A stretch of 64,000 bases of DNA, from positions 2,464,001 to 2,528,000 of the forward strand of contig OZ241863.1 of NCBI GenBank assembly GCA_965203055.1, written 5' to 3'. The stretch is from Spirochaetia bacterium. GTDB taxonomy: Bacteria > Spirochaetota > Spirochaetia > SZUA-6 > Bin103. Under the pieces are notes generated by a model that was given only the letters and a program-made list of their open reading frames with translations, was not told where the DNA came from and did no database searches. The position numbers were made by a program, and so were the translations under genes. Positions within the stretch are counted from its first letter, which is position 1. Every line of letters starts with the position of its first letter. Positions 1-52,003 of this stretch are shown piece by piece.

Positions 1-576
1 GGCGACCGCCGCCGCGCCAGCCTGTGGCAGGTACTGGGCGCGGCGCGCCGCCGCGGGCGCGCCGCGCCGCTGGCCCCGGATCTCCCGCAGCCGGAGACCT
101 CCTTCGCCCCCCTCAACCGCGCTGCCGCCATCGCCTGGGACTACACCGCCACCGGCCACAGCGCGCGCGGCCATCCGCTGGCGCCGTTGCGCCGCCGCCT
201 CGCCGCCCGCGAGCTGCCCACCGCCCGGCAGGTCGCCGCCATGGAACATGGCCGGCAGGTCTCCTGCGCCGGCCTGGTAATCTGCCGCCAGCGGCCCGGC
301 ACCGCCTCCGGCGTGGTGTTCATGACCCTCGAAGACGAGACCGGCTTCATCAACCTGGTGGTCTGGCCCAAGGTGTTCCAACGCTTCCGCAGCACCATCC
401 TCACGGCCGCGTTCCTCGAGGTAAGCGGCGCGGTCCAGGCGCAGCACGGCGTGGCGCACGTGATCGCCGGACGGTTCCGGGCCCTGGAATGGGCCACCGG
501 GCGGCCCCTGGAGCCCGGCGCCGGCCAGCCCGCCGCGCGCAACGCCCTGCCGTTGCGGAGCCACGACTTCCACTGA
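1..576 (+). CDS. dnaE2: Error-prone DNA polymerase III alpha subunit, C-terminal OB-fold part (5'-partial)
   Basis: Frame open from base 1; motifs RQRPGTASGVVFMTLEDETG and C-terminal RSHDFH typical of DnaE2. Confidence 0.92.
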   Translation, partial: GDRRRASLWQVLGAARRRGRAAPLAPDLPQPETSFAPLNRAAAIAWDYTATGHSARGHPLAPLRRRLAARELPTARQVAAMEHGRQVSCAGLVICRQRPGTASGVVFMTLEDETGFINLVVWPKVFQRFRSTILTAAFLEVSGAVQAQHGVAHVIAGRFRALEWATGRPLEPGAGQPAARNALPLRSHDFH

Positions 577-710
577 CCAAGCCGGCCCGCGGCGCCGCGC
601 AGCGGCCTGTTCCGTACCACCTCGCCGCGCACCGGAGGGAGGCCGTGCGCTTCCCGCCGGCGGCCAGCGCTACGCCCAGGCCGCGTCTGCGCTCCGGCAG
701 GGGGCGGCCC

Positions 711-1981: not shown

Positions 1982-3337
1982 TCACCGGTCTACGGGCGCC
2001 TCACGATCCTCGCCGGGGCGGCCGAATCCGGCGCCGGCGTGGCGGTAGCGGTGATGGGCAGCGCACAGCAGGCGGAGATTGTTCGGCTCGGCGGCGCCGC
2101 CGCAGGCATACGGCACGACGTGATCGATCTGCAGCAGGTGTTGGGAGCCGCAGCGGCGCCCGCTGGTACGGTCCACGTAGCGGCAGCGGCCCCGGTCGCG
2201 CCGCCAGACCTCGCGCTTGACCGCTGCCGGGATGGCGCGGCCGGTCACGCCGCCCGCCTTCGCCGCCGAAGTTTCGGTCCGCGGCGGCGCAGCCGGCTTC
2301 GCGCAGGCCGTCGCAGCCTGCCGGCCGAGGCGCCGCGTCTTCGGCGCCGAAGTGGCGTCGGTCGCCGGCTTCGCTGCCGAAGTGTCCGGGCGGTCAGCGG
2401 CTTCCTCTCCCGGCTCCGCCGGCGCCTGAGCCGATACCTTCGCCGCCGAAGGAGCGGCGCGGTCCGCGCCGGCCTCCTGCTTCGCTGCCGGGGCAGCGCC
2501 GCGAGCCGAGGTCGCCTGCGTCTTCGCCGCCGAAGTTTGCTCGGCTCCTTTGGCCGGCGCGGCGCGCCGCCCACGCGGCGGCCGGGCCGGATCGTGGCGG
2601 TCGAGCCCTTCCCGCACCAGCCGCGCCATGAGCTGCCCCAACGTCATATGCGGATCGACGTGGGACAGGAGGCCCTGGAGCCGCTCCAAGCCGCGCCGGC
2701 ACTCATCGTCGATCACCGCCTTGAGTTCCCAGCACCCGCCGCCCAGGGGCCGCACCCGCTCCGCCGGCGCCGCCAGCTCCGGGTCCACCTCGGCCAGCAA
2801 CTGCATCACCTCCCGGCTGCTCTTGCCGGAGGCCTGCTCCACCAGCTCCCGCCGCGCCTCCGAGTCCAGCACCGGCGCCGGCTTCCGCTCCGCCGGCCGC
2901 GGCGGCGCCGCCCCGTCCTGCGACTGAGCGGCTGCCCCGCACCCGGCCCCGTCCGGCGCGCTACGCGCCGCCCGTTCCTTCTTGCGCTCCTGCCGGTCGA
3001 AGGCGTTCTGCAACTGCGCGGCCGCGTTCAGCGTCATCGTGCCATCCTGCAGGCGCTCGCGCACGCCCTCGACGTCCGCGCAGAGCCGCATCGCCTTGAT
3101 GCGCCGCCACGCCGCGGCGTCACTGTAACCCAGCTCGCGCACCGCGTAGTCGAACAGGCTCGAGAACCCGCGCCGCAGATACAGGCGACGCTTCTGAATC
3201 TCGCGCAGGTGGTCGATCACGACCACTTCGAGATGGTGTTCGATGCGGGAAAGTTCCTTGGTCCGCTCCAGCAGGCGGTCGTCTGAGAGGGCGGATACAG
3301 TAGTGGTGACGGCCTCGTCGGAAGCATGTCTGTTCAT
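1982..3337 (-). CDS. HNH endonuclease with long N-terminal helical (DUF222-like) region and TSAAK-repeat linker
   Basis: C-terminal RDRGRC...C...LQIDHVVPYACGG...NNLRLLCAAHH; decayed paralogues elsewhere in the window. Confidence 0.85.
   Translation of the reverse strand: MNRHASDEAVTTTVSALSDDRLLERTKELSRIEHHLEVVVIDHLREIQKRRLYLRRGFSSLFDYAVRELGYSDAAAWRRIKAMRLCADVEGVRERLQDGTMTLNAAAQLQNAFDRQERKKERAARSAPDGAGCGAAAQSQDGAAPPRPAERKPAPVLDSEARRELVEQASGKSSREVMQLLAEVDPELAAPAERVRPLGGGCWELKAVIDDECRRGLERLQGLLSHVDPHMTLGQLMARLVREGLDRHDPARPPRGRRAAPAKGAEQTSAAKTQATSARGAAPAAKQEAGADRAAPSAAKVSAQAPAEPGEEAADRPDTSAAKPATDATSAPKTRRLGRQAATACAKPAAPPRTETSAAKAGGVTGRAIPAAVKREVWRRDRGRCRYVDRTSGRRCGSQHLLQIDHVVPYACGGAAEPNNLRLLCAAHHRYRHAGAGFGRPGEDREAPVDR
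2258..2535. repeat. In-frame palindromic repeats CTTCG-N4-CGAAG (encode T/PSAAK or TSAPK)
   Basis: Copies at 2258, 2339, 2369, 2438, 2522; degenerate copy at 2480. Confidence 0.85.
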
Positions 3338-3374: not shown

Positions 3375-3543
3375 TATTCGGCCCGGAGGATGGCACCTGC
3401 GGGCGTGACTCGGCGGCGCATTCCCAAGCGGCTGGACGCAGCAATACGCAGGTGGTCAGCGTGGGGAGCGCGTGCTATCATGGCGCGGTCCGGCTCGCGG
3501 CCAATCGCCAACGACGGCCGGGGGGTGATCGCTGGTATCGCTG

Positions 3544-5520
3544 TTGCTGGCCGCCGGAGTCGCCGCGCTAATGGCGTGCGCGCCCGCGGCGCGCCCCTCC
3601 GCGGCGCCCGCCGACCCGGCCCAAGGGGGGGGGGGGGGTAAGCCACCGAGCGAGCCGCCGCCGACTTCGCCGCCGCCGACTTCGCAGCCGCCCACCTCGC
3701 AGCCGGCCGAGCAGCGCTGGACGATCAGCGCGGCCGACTTTGGTGACAGCTACCGCGCGCACCTGTTGACCAACCGCTCCGCGCCCTATGCCTGGGAGCG
3801 GATCACCGCCGGCGGCGTGCGCGTTTCGATCGGCGGGCGCGAGCTGCCGTTCACGAGCACGCGAGCCAACCCGGTCTTCACCCCCGATCTCTCCGGCGCG
3901 GAGTGGACGGTTGCCGCCGAGGTGCGGGCGGGAGAAGTGGTGCTGGTGCTCACCGCCCCCGATCAGTCGGGCGCCGGCGACACGGTTGAATCGGTCACGA
4001 TCACCAACCCGGGGAGCGGCTACACGACAGACCCGACCGTGACCTTTTCGGCCCCGCCGTCCGGCGGCGCCACCGCAACCGGCGCCGCGGTAAGGTCCGG
4101 CAGCGTCGACTCCGTGACGATTACGACCCCAGGGAGCGGCTACCCCTCGGTTCCCACCGTGACCTTTTCGGCGCCGCCGTCCGGCGCCGCGGCAACCGGC
4201 GCCGCGGTGGGGACCCGGCGCGTCGATTCCGTGACGATTACGACCGCCGGGAGCGGCTACACGGCTGTTCCCGGCGTAACGTTCGGGGCGGCGCCGTCCG
4301 GCGGCGCCACGGCAACCGGCACCGCAGTGGGGACCCGGCGCGTCGATTCCGTGACGGTCGGGACCGCGGGAAGCGGCTACACGGCGGTCCCTGCCGTCAC
4401 GTTTTCGGGCGGAGGCGGCAGCGGCGCGGTCGCTACCGCGGTACGGCAAAGCGGCGTCGCGTCAGTGACGCTCACGAACCGCGGGACATTTTATCTCTCT
4501 GACCCAACCGTCACGTTCGGGGCGGCGCCGTCCGGCGGCGCCACGGCGACCGGCACCGCAACGCGGCGATCTGAAGTATTTACCGTGGCGGTGAACGTCG
4601 GGGGGAGCGGTTACACGTCTGCCCCCACCGTGACGATTGGCGCTCCGCCGCCCGGTGGCACCCAGGCAACCGCTACAGCGGCGATCAGTGGCGGTCAAGT
4701 GAGTTCCGTAACCGTGACGAACGGTGGGCGCGGCTACACGTCTAACCCTTCCGTCACGTTTTCGGGAGGAGGGGGCAGCGGCGCGGCCGGCAACGTGTCG
4801 ATTCGAGCAGACAGGTTGGATGCCGTGACGATCACGAACCCGGGGAGCGGCTACACGTCAGCCCCTTCCGTAACGTTTTCGGCGGCCCAGGGGACTGGTG
4901 TTACGGCAACCGGCACCGCGGTGCTGCAGAGCGGCGTCGCGTCGGTGAGGGTCACCAACGGCGGGAGCGGTTACACCTCCGCCCCTGCCGTGACCTTCGC
5001 GGCCGCGCCTGCCGGCGGCACCACCGCAACCGGCACCGCGGCGCTGCGCTACGGCGTCGCGTCGGTGGACGTCACGGACGGCGGGAGCGGCTACACCTCC
5101 GCCCCTACCGTGACCTTCGCGGCCGCGCCGAGCGGCGGCACCACGGCCGCCGGCACCGCGGTGCTGCGCTACGGCGTGGCGTCGGTGAACGTCACGAACG
5201 GCGGGAGCGGCTACACCTCCGCCCCTGCCGTGACCTTCGCGGCCGCGCCGAGTGGCGGCGCCACCGCCGCCGGCACCGCGGCGCTGCGCCTCAGCGCCGT
5301 CGCGTCGGTGAGGGTCACGAACGGCGGGAGCGGCTACACCTCCGCCCCCACCGTGACCTTTTCGGCCCCGGCCGGCGGTACCCGCGCGACCGGCACGGCC
5401 AACTTGGCAGAGAGCGGCTACGATCAATACCAGAACCTGTATTGGGCGCGCCAAACCCTGGATGGCAAGCAGCTTGTCGTTCAGCTCGCGGATCAGGCGC
5501 CGGCCCGTGATGACAGATAG
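3544..5520 (+). CDS. Putative surface lipoprotein with 12 GSGYT/APTVT repeats (paralogue 1)
   Basis: Lipobox-like LLLAAGVAALMA-C, Pro-rich linker, 12 ~40-aa repeats; start uncertain (CTG 3532 after SD-like GGGGGTGATC, or TTG 3544). Confidence 0.75.
   Translation: MLAAGVAALMACAPAARPSAAPADPAQGGGGGKPPSEPPPTSPPPTSQPPTSQPAEQRWTISAADFGDSYRAHLLTNRSAPYAWERITAGGVRVSIGGRELPFTSTRANPVFTPDLSGAEWTVAAEVRAGEVVLVLTAPDQSGAGDTVESVTITNPGSGYTTDPTVTFSAPPSGGATATGAAVRSGSVDSVTITTPGSGYPSVPTVTFSAPPSGAAATGAAVGTRRVDSVTITTAGSGYTAVPGVTFGAAPSGGATATGTAVGTRRVDSVTVGTAGSGYTAVPAVTFSGGGGSGAVATAVRQSGVASVTLTNRGTFYLSDPTVTFGAAPSGGATATGTATRRSEVFTVAVNVGGSGYTSAPTVTIGAPPPGGTQATATAAISGGQVSSVTVTNGGRGYTSNPSVTFSGGGGSGAAGNVSIRADRLDAVTITNPGSGYTSAPSVTFSAAQGTGVTATGTAVLQSGVASVRVTNGGSGYTSAPAVTFAAAPAGGTTATGTAALRYGVASVDVTDGGSGYTSAPTVTFAAAPSGGTTAAGTAVLRYGVASVNVTNGGSGYTSAPAVTFAAAPSGGATAAGTAALRLSAVASVRVTNGGSGYTSAPTVTFSAPAGGTRATGTANLAESGYDQYQNLYWARQTLDGKQLVVQLADQAPARDDR
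3625..3638 (+). repeat. G14 homopolymer inside the lipoprotein CDS
   Basis: ccaa(G)14taagc read directly. Confidence 0.9.
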
Positions 5521-49681: not shown

Positions 49682-52003
49682 TCACTCGTCCCCGCCTACC
49701 TGCACCCGAAGCTGCTGGCCGGCCAGGGTCTGGCGCGCCCAGAACAGGTTCTGGCTCGCGTCGTTGCCGCCCGCCGCCAGGATGGCGGTGCCGGTCGCGG
49801 TGGTGCCGCCGCCCGGCGCCGCCGTAAAGGTCACCGTCGGGGCGGTCACGTAGCCGCTCCCCCCGTTGGTGATCTCCACCGACCGGATGACGTATTCGAA
49901 GACCGCGGTGCCGACCGCGGTGGTGGCGCCGGTCGGCGCCGCCGTAAAGGAGACGGTCGGGGCGGAGGTGTAGCCGCTGCCGGGGTTGGTGACCGTCGCC
50001 GTCGGGACGGCGTAGGCCATCACCGCGGTGGCGGTCGCCCCGCTGCCGCCGCCGCCGGTAAGGGAGACGGTGGGCGCCGAGGTGTAGCCGCTGCCGGCGG
50101 TGCCGGGCGTCACCGAGGCGACCCCGTAGTTCATCACCGCGGTGCCGGTCGCCGCGGTGCCGGACGACGGCGTCGAAAAGGTCACGGTGGGGGCCGAGGT
50201 GTAGCCGCTCCCCCCGGCGGTGACCGTCACCTCATCTGCCTCGACGACCACGGTCGCGGTGGCGGCCGCCCCGCTGCCGCCGCCGCCGGAGAAGGAGACG
50301 GTGGGCGCCGAGGTGTAGCCGCTTCCGCCGCTGGTGACGTCAACCCCGGTGATGGTGCTGCCCATCACCGCGCGGTAGCCGGCCCCGCTGCCGCCGCCGC
50401 CGGTAAAGGTGATCGTGGGAGCGGAGGTGTAGCCGCTCCCCGCGTTGGTGACGTCGACCCCTCGAATGTTGGAGTACATTCTCACGTTGAACGTTGCCCC
50501 CGTGCCTACCGTAATGGAGACCGTGGGGGGCGAGGTGTAGCCGCGCCCCCGGTTGGTGAATACGAGGCGGTCCGCCCGCCCGTCTGAATGCCTGCTCAAG
50601 GTGGCGGTTGCCCTGGTGCCGCCGGACGGCGGCGCCGAAAGGGTCACGACGGAGGCCGACGTGTAACCGCTGCCGTCGGCGGTTTTCGGCGCGCTCTGGA
50701 CGGCGTCGGGCCCCCACGCGGTGCCGGTCGCGGTGGTGCCGCCGGCCCGTTGTGGGGCCGAGAAGGTCGCGGTCGGGACCGAGGTGTAGCCGCTCCCGTA
50801 CTGATTGCCGATCCTCGTCACGGAAGCGACGCTGTCGGGCCCGGTCGCGGCGGCGGCCGCGCCGCTGCCGCCGCCGCCGGAGAAGGAGACGGTGGGGGGC
50901 GAGGTGTAGCCGCTGCCGGCGTTCCCGACCGACACCGAAGTGACGGCCCCGCGTGTCGTCGCGGTGGCGGTAGCTCCGCTGCCGCCGCCGCCCGAAATGG
51001 TGACCGTGGGCGCCCCCGTATAGCCCGATCCCCGGGTATCGAGCGTCACGTCAGCGACGCTGCCGCTGAGCGCCGCGGTGCCGGCCGCATCGGTGCCGCC
51101 GGACGGCGCCGCCGAGAAGGAGACGGTGGGCGCCGACGTGTAGCCGCTGCCGGCGGTATCGACGTTCACCGAAGTGACGCTGCCGCTGATATCCGGGGTG
51201 GCGGCCGCGCCGCTGCCGCCGCCGCCGGAAAAGGAGATGGTGGGCGCCGAGGTGTAGCCGGCGCCGGCGGTCGTGACGTTCACCGAACCGACGCCGCCGC
51301 CGCCCGCTACGTCGGCGGTTGCCCGGGTGCCGCCGGCCGGCGGCGGAGCAAGGGTCACGGTGGGCGCCGAGGTGTAGCCGCTGCCCCGCTCGGTAATCCT
51401 GACCGACGCGACGGTGTCCGAGGCCCCAGACTGATCCGGGGCGGTGAGCACCAGCACGATCGCGCCCGCGCTCACTTCGGCGCCAACCGTCCACTGCGCG
51501 CCTGAGATGTCGCCGGCGAAGGTCGGCGCGGTCGCCGTGCTCGTGAACGGCAGCTCGTTGCCGCCGATCGACACGGTCACCTTCTCGCCCTCGGCGCCGG
51601 TGATCCCGTCCCAGGCGAACGGCTCGGAGCGGATCGTCGAGAGGCTCGGGTCCGCTGCGTCAGGCAGCGGCAGCGCCGATGACCAAGCATCCTCTCCCAG
51701 GGGCCAGCTCTTCGTGGCCGCCGGAGTCGGGGCCGGCGCGGTCGGCGACCCGCCATTGCCGCCGGCGCCGCCGCCGGCTCCGTTTCCGCCCGCGCCGCCG
51801 GCGCCCGTACCGCCGGTCGCGCCCGGCCGGGCCGTCTGCTGGCACGCCAGCAGGGCGATGCCGATGACTGCCGCCAGCGCCAGGAGCGCTGCCTTGCCGC
51901 TCATCCCCTTGACCCTCGCCGGCCGGAGCTGCCGAGGTCGGCCCGAATCTTTCGGTTCATGGGGGGGGGGGGTAAGCGTAAGCTCGTTGTCGTTACCGGT
52001 CAT
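49682..52003 (-). CDS. Putative surface lipoprotein with 14 GSGYT/APTVT repeats (paralogue 2)
   Basis: SD GGGAG 8 nt before ATG 52003 (alternative ATG 51904); lipobox-like IALLA-C; same flanking domain halves as paralogue 1. Confidence 0.8.
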   Translation of the reverse strand: MTGNDNELTLTPPPHEPKDSGRPRQLRPARVKGMSGKAALLALAAVIGIALLACQQTARPGATGGTGAGGAGGNGAGGGAGGNGGSPTAPAPTPAATKSWPLGEDAWSSALPLPDAADPSLSTIRSEPFAWDGITGAEGEKVTVSIGGNELPFTSTATAPTFAGDISGAQWTVGAEVSAGAIVLVLTAPDQSGASDTVASVRITERGSGYTSAPTVTLAPPPAGGTRATADVAGGGGVGSVNVTTAGAGYTSAPTISFSGGGGSGAAATPDISGSVTSVNVDTAGSGYTSAPTVSFSAAPSGGTDAAGTAALSGSVADVTLDTRGSGYTGAPTVTISGGGGSGATATATTRGAVTSVSVGNAGSGYTSPPTVSFSGGGGSGAAAAATGPDSVASVTRIGNQYGSGYTSVPTATFSAPQRAGGTTATGTAWGPDAVQSAPKTADGSGYTSASVVTLSAPPSGGTRATATLSRHSDGRADRLVFTNRGRGYTSPPTVSITVGTGATFNVRMYSNIRGVDVTNAGSGYTSAPTITFTGGGGSGAGYRAVMGSTITGVDVTSGGSGYTSAPTVSFSGGGGSGAAATATVVVEADEVTVTAGGSGYTSAPTVTFSTPSSGTAATGTAVMNYGVASVTPGTAGSGYTSAPTVSLTGGGGSGATATAVMAYAVPTATVTNPGSGYTSAPTVSFTAAPTGATTAVGTAVFEYVIRSVEITNGGSGYVTAPTVTFTAAPGGGTTATGTAILAAGGNDASQNLFWARQTLAGQQLRVQVGGDE
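51961..51972 (-). repeat. C12 homopolymer in the 5' coding region of lipoprotein 2
   Basis: + strand ttcat(G)12taagc. Confidence 0.9.

Follow-up and report, generated by a model that had tools for sequence, protein, structure and literature searches.

We analyzed two repeat-bearing genes lying in a 64,000-nucleotide stretch of the genome of a Spirochaetia bacterium (contig OZ241863.1, positions 2,464,001 to 2,528,000; hereafter the window). The usual view of a tandem repeat array is one of beads or coils that stack in the order of the sequence. The arrays of these two genes, composed of 12 and 14 repeats, are probably nested instead: the chain would run out and come back, so that in an array of n repeats each repeat i faces repeat n+1-i and forms a rung with it. 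In the architecture that we propose, each gene would encode a lipoprotein made of a proline- and glycine-rich tether, a small beta anchor domain and the repeat array, the latter inserted just before the last helix and strand of the anchor domain. The array would run out for n/2 repeats, make a tight central turn and return, without any head-to-tail stacking. Repeats i and n+1-i would jointly build a six-stranded barrel-like rung of approximately 80 residues, and long strands crossing the repeat junctions would tie successive rungs into a rod, whose length is set by n/2. Since the two arms must match, such an array would gain or lose whole rungs or a tip pair, so that the repeat count stays even and the junction types stay mirrored, and paralogues would differ most at the tip rung. 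The family has 32 members with 4 to 14 repeats in this genome, the majority with a homopolymer tract of G or C near the 5' end of the coding region; the reading frame depends on the length of this tract. The family, the parity of its repeat numbers, the mirror patterns, the topology of the models, and the tracts with their frame states were all computed.

The two genes are organized as follows.

3544..5520, + strand: family copy with 12 repeats, 658 amino acids, coordinates including the stop (open reading frame and repeat count)
3709..3981, + strand: N flank of the 12-repeat gene, predicted main part of the beta anchor domain (flank comparison and model)
3982..4695, + strand: outgoing arm of the 12-repeat gene, R1-R6 (repeat calls)
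4696..5412, + strand: putative returning arm of the 12-repeat gene, R7-R12 (repeat calls and model)
5413..5517, + strand: C flank of the 12-repeat gene, helix and last strand that complete the anchor domain in the model (model)
49682..52003, - strand: family copy with 14 repeats, 773 amino acids, coordinates including the stop (open reading frame and repeat count)
51416..51712, - strand: N flank of the 14-repeat gene (flank comparison)
50579..51415, - strand: outgoing arm of the 14-repeat gene, R1-R7 (repeat calls)
49772..50578, - strand: returning arm of the 14-repeat gene, R8-R14 (repeat calls)
49685..49771, - strand: C flank of the 14-repeat gene (sequence)

The two proteins share 47% identity over their whole mature length (E 1e-112, BLASTP) and 60% over the N flanks, while the C flanks, QNLYWARQTLDGKQLVVQ in the 12-repeat and QNLFWARQTLAGQQLRVQ in the 14-repeat protein, follow the common pattern QNL[YF]WARQTL.G.QL.VQ. 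Between the flanks, the anchor motif G.[GF]Y occurs 12 times in the protein encoded at 3544-5520 and 15 times in that encoded at 49682-52003, where a GAGY within repeat 9 is spurious and leaves 14 repeats. The periods are 36-42 amino acids in both proteins, and a hidden Markov model (HMM) of the repeat returns the same counts of 12 and 14. The midpoint junctions read AISGG/QV in the 12-repeat and SRHSDG/RA in the 14-repeat protein, and the least canonical repeats are central. Mean identity to the sibling repeats is 50% for R4, 49% for R6 and 48% for R7 of the 12-repeat protein (55-64% for the rest), and 42, 40 and 35% for R6-R8 of the 14-repeat protein (45-52% for the rest). The shared segments, the repeat counts, the turn-like midpoints and the central position of the unusual repeats had all been noticed in an initial annotation of the window, and they are borne out here. 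The same annotation singled out GRGY as the mark of the first repeat after the midpoint. This variant is indeed restricted to that repeat in both window proteins, but other paralogues carry it in R1, R7 or R8, and GRGY is therefore no general tip marker. Mirror partners are not more similar in sequence than repeats overall (53% and 57%, respectively, in the 12-repeat protein; 46% in both cases in the 14-repeat protein), a similarity that the nested model does not require.

The initial annotation regarded the two genes as a lipoprotein pair, which underestimates the family: they are 2 of 32 places detected by an N-flank profile search of the source genome (4.56 Mb, 68.75% GC). Both flanks are present in 27 complete copies, and the remaining 5 are truncated or frameshifted. 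Among 30 related genomes searched, four, all from the same taxonomic family, contain 22, 29, 26 and 5 N-flank matches, and only 55 of 1.84 billion representative proteins match the N flank.

All 27 complete copies of the source genome have an even number of repeats, namely 14 (9 copies), 12 (8 copies), 10 (1 copy), 8 (5 copies), 6 (3 copies) and 4 (1 copy). Complete copies of the four relatives are even in 18/20, 23/26, 14/18 and 4/5 cases by raw HMM count, and in 20/20, 23/26, 18/18 and 4/5 after correction by eye. The correction concerned six miscounts, all set to n = 4: in five apparent 'n = 3' copies a stretch of 83-86 residues consists of two degenerate repeats, and in one apparent 'n = 5' copy a long repeat had been split into two HMM matches. 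Overall, the parity check proposed at the outset, made on homologues collected through their flanks, gave 92 even copies out of 96 in the five genomes (86 out of 96 by raw HMM count), with four copies failing it. The longest array, a 30-repeat copy of a relative (L065, G012:C1:1882400-1891800), is encoded by an open frame of 1422 amino acids; repeat types alternate along each arm, and the irregular cysteine-bearing repeats are numbers 15 and 16, exactly at the center.

We then aligned whole repeats between copies, without imposing any symmetry. The 6-repeat copies match R1, R5, R6, R7, R8 and R12 of the 12-repeat gene, and the missing R2-4 and R9-11 are mirror partners. One 8-repeat copy is without R2, R6, R7 and R11, which form two mirror pairs, and the 10-repeat copy is without R2 and one of the near-identical R9-R11, having lost one repeat per arm. 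In one 14-repeat copy, the two extra repeats sit beside the tip. The junctions between repeats also fall into types, and their order along the returning arm mirrors that of the outgoing arm. Two measures distinguish the mirror register from the alternatives, the matching of LQS/G junctions (13 cases with n = 6, 8, 10, 12 and 14) and the facing of Tyr-ended returning junctions with Gly-type outgoing ones.

Mirror register: LQS/G type 13/13, Tyr-ended facing Gly-type 47/52
Register shifted by +1: LQS/G type 1/13, Tyr-ended facing Gly-type 41/52
Register shifted by -1: LQS/G type 1/13, Tyr-ended facing Gly-type 34/52
Direct register: LQS/G type 2/13, Tyr-ended facing Gly-type 28/52

The junctions of the metagenome protein P0029 follow the order ISS, AYY, tip, AYY, ISS, and the mirror junction test in the closest relative gave 6/7. 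The weight of the mirrored junctions is their persistence across changing n. Separately, an HMM classification of repeats into N-arm and C-arm switches at n/2 in many copies; it is confounded by the linker types (AAPSGG and GGGGSG) and was left unused.

A diversified central pair, also part of the initial annotation, is found in two subfamilies out of three. In the 14-type subfamily, identity among paralogues is 50/51% at the tip rung compared to 65-82% elsewhere, and in the 12-type subfamily it is 66/62% compared to 69-80%; the 6-type subfamily does not clearly follow.

The position of the flanks relative to the array can be read from distant homologues. In the repeat-free proteins P0056, P0065, P0066 and P0068, the N flank is followed within 16-41 residues by an end resembling the C flank, although only P0056 is a clear C-flank match (E 1.6e-4 in a search of seven sequences) and P0065, P0066 and P0068 match through the last strand, K.LLV.L.E, alone. 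P0067 looks repeat-free by eye, but gave no C-flank row in the search. Since these homologues link the N flank to the C flank almost directly, the array looks like an insertion into one domain. Two AlphaFold2 predictions were then compared with known structures:

Mature 12-repeat protein: alignment of 27 paralogues, mean predicted local distance difference test (pLDDT) 82.1, predicted template modelling score (pTM) 0.36
6-repeat paralogue: 11 colinear sequences, mean pLDDT 80.1, pTM 0.49

Structural alignment was done with VIA-align, and 50 rows were considered. In most of the top-ranking rows, 60-88 residues of one small domain are matched over the range 1..606 of 609 residues in the 12-repeat model, and over 1..371 of 371 in the 6-repeat model. 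One small domain thus spans the first to the last residues, and the N and C flanks sit together in the models, which, along with the repeat-free homologues, agrees with the co-folding of the flanks expected from the initial annotation. A plain sequential stack would place the flanks at opposite ends of a solenoid or of a string of single repeats, with parity arising from the mechanics of duplication. This is the usual case among tandem repeats, and some duplications in the family did involve two-repeat units. We hold it to be most improbable here, given the repeat-free homologues, the assignment of the whole 1..606 and 1..371 ranges to one small domain, and the fact that near-identical triple runs make single-repeat steps possible, yet the 10-repeat copy lost one repeat in each arm.

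The pairing of repeat i with repeat n+1-i, the central proposal of the initial annotation, is supported in the models as well as by the mirrored junctions. Domain I of the T4 tail sheath protein gp18 (PDB 3foa, 3fo8; residues 99-188) is the best non-flank match to a rung in both models (75-76 residues, root-mean-square deviation (rmsd) 3.2 Å, 12-16% identity, middling Z of 5.7-5.9); gp18 has one such domain and no ladder. On the 12-repeat model it covers the range 297..373, which is the contiguous central pair R6+R7, the tip barrel of this model (Z 5.9). On the 6-repeat model the same domain aligns over 76 residues within 103..344 (Z 5.7), a range that fits a single barrel made of R1 (101-140) and R6 (307-344). 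Two CDHR3 rows on the 6-repeat model cover 139..308 and 143..315, corresponding to R2+R5 (Z 3.4-3.6). According to DSSP, both models contain 17-residue strands that cross the repeat junctions and a hairpin at the central junction alone, and the strand breaks fall at mirror junctions (J3/J9 in the 12-repeat and J1/J5 in the 6-repeat model). We take the alignment ranges as support for the nested topology of the models rather than as proof. The domains of gp18 are themselves nested insertions.

These ranges also bear on two other arrangements. If the flanks co-folded and the array between them had no rungs, being either a flexible loop or a pair of independent arms, the best-supported element of our reading would be retained and the low pTM values would be expected. 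Such an anchored loop leaves the even counts, the equal arms and the mirrored junctions unaccounted for, and the R1+R6 and R2+R5 ranges favor rungs, so that we judge it unlikely. Alternatively, adjacent repeats could pair, R1 with R2, R3 with R4 and so on, each pair forming a barrel and the barrels lying in a row. Even counts would follow here too, the 30-repeat copy contains two-repeat duplications, and a contiguous two-repeat unit recurs in viral structures (see below). Under such adjacent pairing, however, the compact R6+R7 of the 12-repeat model would straddle two domains, the barrel of the 6-repeat model is 103..344 and not 101..180, and the mirrored junctions, the central landmarks and the co-folding of the flanks are left unexplained. 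We therefore consider this arrangement very unlikely.

The repeat is shared with phages, as the initial annotation had stated for its GSGYT-like motif. PHROGs virion structural, tail-fibre, baseplate and connector families match the repeats with E-values of 1e-54 to 1e-90; the best families of the two proteins have E-values of 1.4e-61 and 1.8e-90, with 5-9 matched stretches. By tblastn the repeat is found in 19 phage records, 18 of which are named as cyanophages. Virion proteins of T4-like cyanophages (PHROGs 460, 5342, 701 and 19630) carry the same repeat by sequence (27-46% identity, tblastn) but, unlike the family described here, neither the N/C flank domain nor the lipobox. Viral predicted structures gave 50 matches at E <= 0.001, and 82-86 contiguous columns of the model superpose with three viral proteins, one of them from Synechococcus phage S-PM2 and two shown without a name (rmsd 1.2-1.8 Å, 38-46% identity; model m9087f347b185), so that the two-repeat unit is closely shared with phages. 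The presence of the repeat in phage tail-fibre and baseplate families could argue for an oligomeric fibre, in which the arms of different chains would pair, as they do in the trimeric fibres of phages. Such an arrangement requires neither a central turn nor arms that are equal within a chain, and the monomer models close on themselves, which makes this possibility highly improbable.

Pfam and NCBIfam scans of both proteins gave 0 families, a PDB sequence search found no related solved structure but only low-complexity matches to glycine linkers, and a Protein Atlas search reached a best score of 0.76 with unnamed clusters that offered no lead. The repeat is thus covered by no Pfam model and no solved structure. 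Foldseek against the PDB returned nothing at E <= 0.001. The sandwich-barrel hybrid motif (SBHM) fold appeared for the rungs in non-significant Foldseek rows only, and no SBHM chain was among the 50 VIA-align rows shown. The papers listed by a full-text literature search with the repeat motif were unrelated by title and abstract, and no description of the family was found among those listed.

Out-and-back stalks are nonetheless already known, and the view of the initial annotation that no described adhesin has this layout was too strong. The passages of PMC12974128 on streptococcal AgI/II proteins (SpaP/P1, SspB) describe A- and P-region repeats that associate in a long out-and-back stalk, the ends of which lie near the cell, and a variable V domain at its far end. 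In that stalk an alpha helix and a polyproline-II helix wind around each other and the two arms consist of different, unrelated repeats, whereas the family described here uses one all-beta repeat in both arms. AgI/II proteins are anchored to the wall of Gram-positives and have a separate globular tip; here the predicted anchor is a lipobox and the putative tip is the central pair. The Pfam scan of both proteins, with 0 families, revealed no sequence relation to AgI/II. A second case is the Si3 insertion of cyanobacterial RNA polymerase, an array of SBHMs. According to PMC10895346, this long beta structure interrupts a loop, with the chain folded over itself and SBHM-2 to -5 assembled from distant parts of the sequence. 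Weak Foldseek rows include Si3 and Thermus beta-prime chains, none of them significant (E 0.2-2.8, TM scores below 0.1). Si3 differs in being cytoplasmic, irregular and single-copy, with neither a mirror rule of repeat number nor 40-residue half-units. What sets our family apart from both AgI/II and Si3 is the same beta repeat in both arms, rungs made of two half-units, and the footprint left in parity, junctions and rung-wise insertions and deletions; an all-beta form with the same repeat in both arms is not known to have been described.

Several observations weigh against the nested reading. The global confidence of the models is low (pTM 0.36 and 0.49), the other four of the five 12-repeat models have pLDDT values of 44-65, and the topology was read from the first and last aligned residues of structural alignment rows instead of a contact map or coordinates. 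With Z values of 3.4-6.6, the structural matches are of middling quality and lie in a range that the tool calls common by chance. The significance of the junction permutation figures is overstated because paralogues share ancestry and the trials are not independent; the mirror test was repeated in the closest relative alone, more distant relatives being without those junction types. No clear tip divergence is seen in the 6-type subfamily. Two-repeat units were duplicated in the 30-repeat copy, and such steps alone would preserve parity. The 12-repeat gene itself may be silent because the Shine-Dalgarno sequence and TTG start typical of the family are missing and an in-frame TGA lies just upstream.

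Odd arrays belong with these observations. The four odd copies in complete genomes have n = 9 (L048), 1 (L038 and L099) and 11 (L037); L099 is from G015 and the other three are from G011. The 9-repeat copy is composed of 6+3 repeats around the tip landmark, having lost three near-identical repeats after it. In addition, 4/28 complete metagenome homologues are odd by raw HMM count (7, 5, 5 and a doubtful 3), in tallies that exclude P0016, P0017, P0019 and P0020, all with n = 4, whose variant C-flank motif is missed by the pattern. The four odd genome copies may have arisen through recent deletion or through collapse in the assembly, or they may be variants that are tolerated. The 7-repeat metagenome protein looks like the 8-repeat genome copy after fusion of the final two repeats, and the three odd metagenome rows included in the flank tree are all single tips, with no odd clade. 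As a separate observation, the two single-repeat copies resemble fusions of a first and a last repeat.

A broader claim is conceivable, although we would not yet favor it. Under a mirror-symmetry rule, identical half-barrels of 40 residues would pair first with last into a monomeric beta ladder of programmable length, and evolution would have to change repeat number either by mirror pairs or by steps at the tip. This rule might also hold in the very long arrays of the repeat in cyanophage virion proteins, and some 30 individually switched rods of 2-7 rungs (15 in a relative) might vary the height and the tip of the surface coat against phages or host cells. If the nested reading is true, it would change the annotation of such arrays and the interpretation of copy-number changes, which would proceed in paired and not in single steps, as well as the modelling of many unannotated phage virion proteins with the same repeat. 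It would also offer protein design a natural series of rigid rods with 2 to 15 rungs, and would point to a large, individually switched putative surface repertoire in an environmental bacterium known from sponge and marine metagenome runs, a lifestyle usually linked to pathogens.

The 5' ends of the two window genes contain the following elements.

3544..3579, + strand: shortened putative signal peptide ending in the lipobox LMAC, 12-repeat gene (lipobox by eye)
3625..3638, + strand: G14 tract, translated as GGGGG and in frame, 15 codons downstream of the lipobox Cys (sequence)
51842..51904, - strand: MSGK-AALLALAAVIGIALLAC, putative signal h-region and lipobox LLAC (Cys54), 14-repeat gene (by eye)
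51961..51972, - strand: C12 tract (reads PPP), codon 11 to codon 15, 31 nucleotides after the ATG at 52003, in frame (sequence)

The lipoprotein signal anticipated in the initial annotation stands only in part: both genes have a lipobox, but a full signal, as judged by eye, is present in the 14-repeat gene alone. In the latter, GGGAG lies 9 nucleotides upstream of the ATG at 52003 and makes a good Shine-Dalgarno sequence, and MSGK is followed by AALLALAAVIGIALL, with a charged n-region and a hydrophobic h-region recognized by eye. In the 12-repeat gene, MLAAGVAALMAC alone remains after the in-frame TGA at 3526-3528, which does not make a proper n- and h-region. This gene is without the start of the family (GGAGG, about 5 nucleotides, TTG GGT AGA GCA TCG) and departs from the consensus upstream of about 3528; the TTG at 3544 is the sole start left to it, with no charged n-region. 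DNA nearly identical to its 5' end was found in contigs of sponge or marine metagenome runs from eight studies, and no RNA run was listed by this search of sequencing runs. Contigs in two runs carry the family consensus 5' sequence up to the point near 3528, and probably derive from paralogues.

The 31 paralogues that have a signal region all retain the lipobox, whatever its frame (LMAC and LLAC in the window genes). In 12 copies a tract of G7-G16 comes after it, and then a TAA that acts as a stop codon in one of the wrong frames. In 7 of these 12, signal peptide and body are in different frames. Copies with G8, G11 and G14 are in frame, and those with G10 are out of frame. A second kind of switch is the poly-C tract (C10-C20) that the 14-repeat subfamily has in its N-terminal extension MTGN..LTPPPH. 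Among the five copies with the 5' end of the 14-repeat gene, two have an open frame (C12 and C15) and three a closed one (C10, C10 and C20). Tract length and frame state were compared across paralogous copies, not cells, and contigs of 75-130 bases that cross the tract, in versions shorter by 1 or 5 letters, are indistinguishable from paralogues. The tracts suggest that the members of a wardrobe of rods are turned on and off at random. We infer that the proteins fold as modelled, are lipidated and surface-exposed and switch in living cells, and they may have a binding or shielding role. The Vlp, Vsa and Vaa proteins of Mycoplasma are likewise repeat-bearing lipoproteins of multigene families, with expression switched by homopolymers and size varying with repeat number. 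Their repeats are short, presumably extended, and not known to follow a parity rule; our family differs further in belonging to a high-GC bacterium and in occurring in contigs of sponge or marine metagenomes.

The neighboring genes are unrelated, and comprise an HNH nuclease, a corrinoid adenosyltransferase, a HIT protein, a sulfatase, a YhgA-like putative transposase and an ammonium transporter. The HNH nuclease gene (1982-3337, - strand) abuts the 12-repeat gene. In the metagenome protein P0034, an N-terminal piece resembling the HNH protein of the window is joined to the family N flank, a fusion that suggests recombination at family loci. The YhgA-like putative transposase (PF04754; 48486-49595, - strand) adjoins the 14-repeat gene and has a run of four-residue GLEQ/GLER repeats near its C end. 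Within the anchor domain, the C flank (5413-5517) weakly matches positions 29-54 of the N-flank profile (3709-3981), with NLYWARQTL.G.QL.VQ facing PYAWERIT.G..V.VSIGG, which hints at a possible internal duplication. Finally, repeat 2 of the 6-repeat copies L029, L032 and L034 has GYYYSGCC in place of GSGYTS, with two adjacent cysteines, and CC is found in a junction strand of other family members (P0013).

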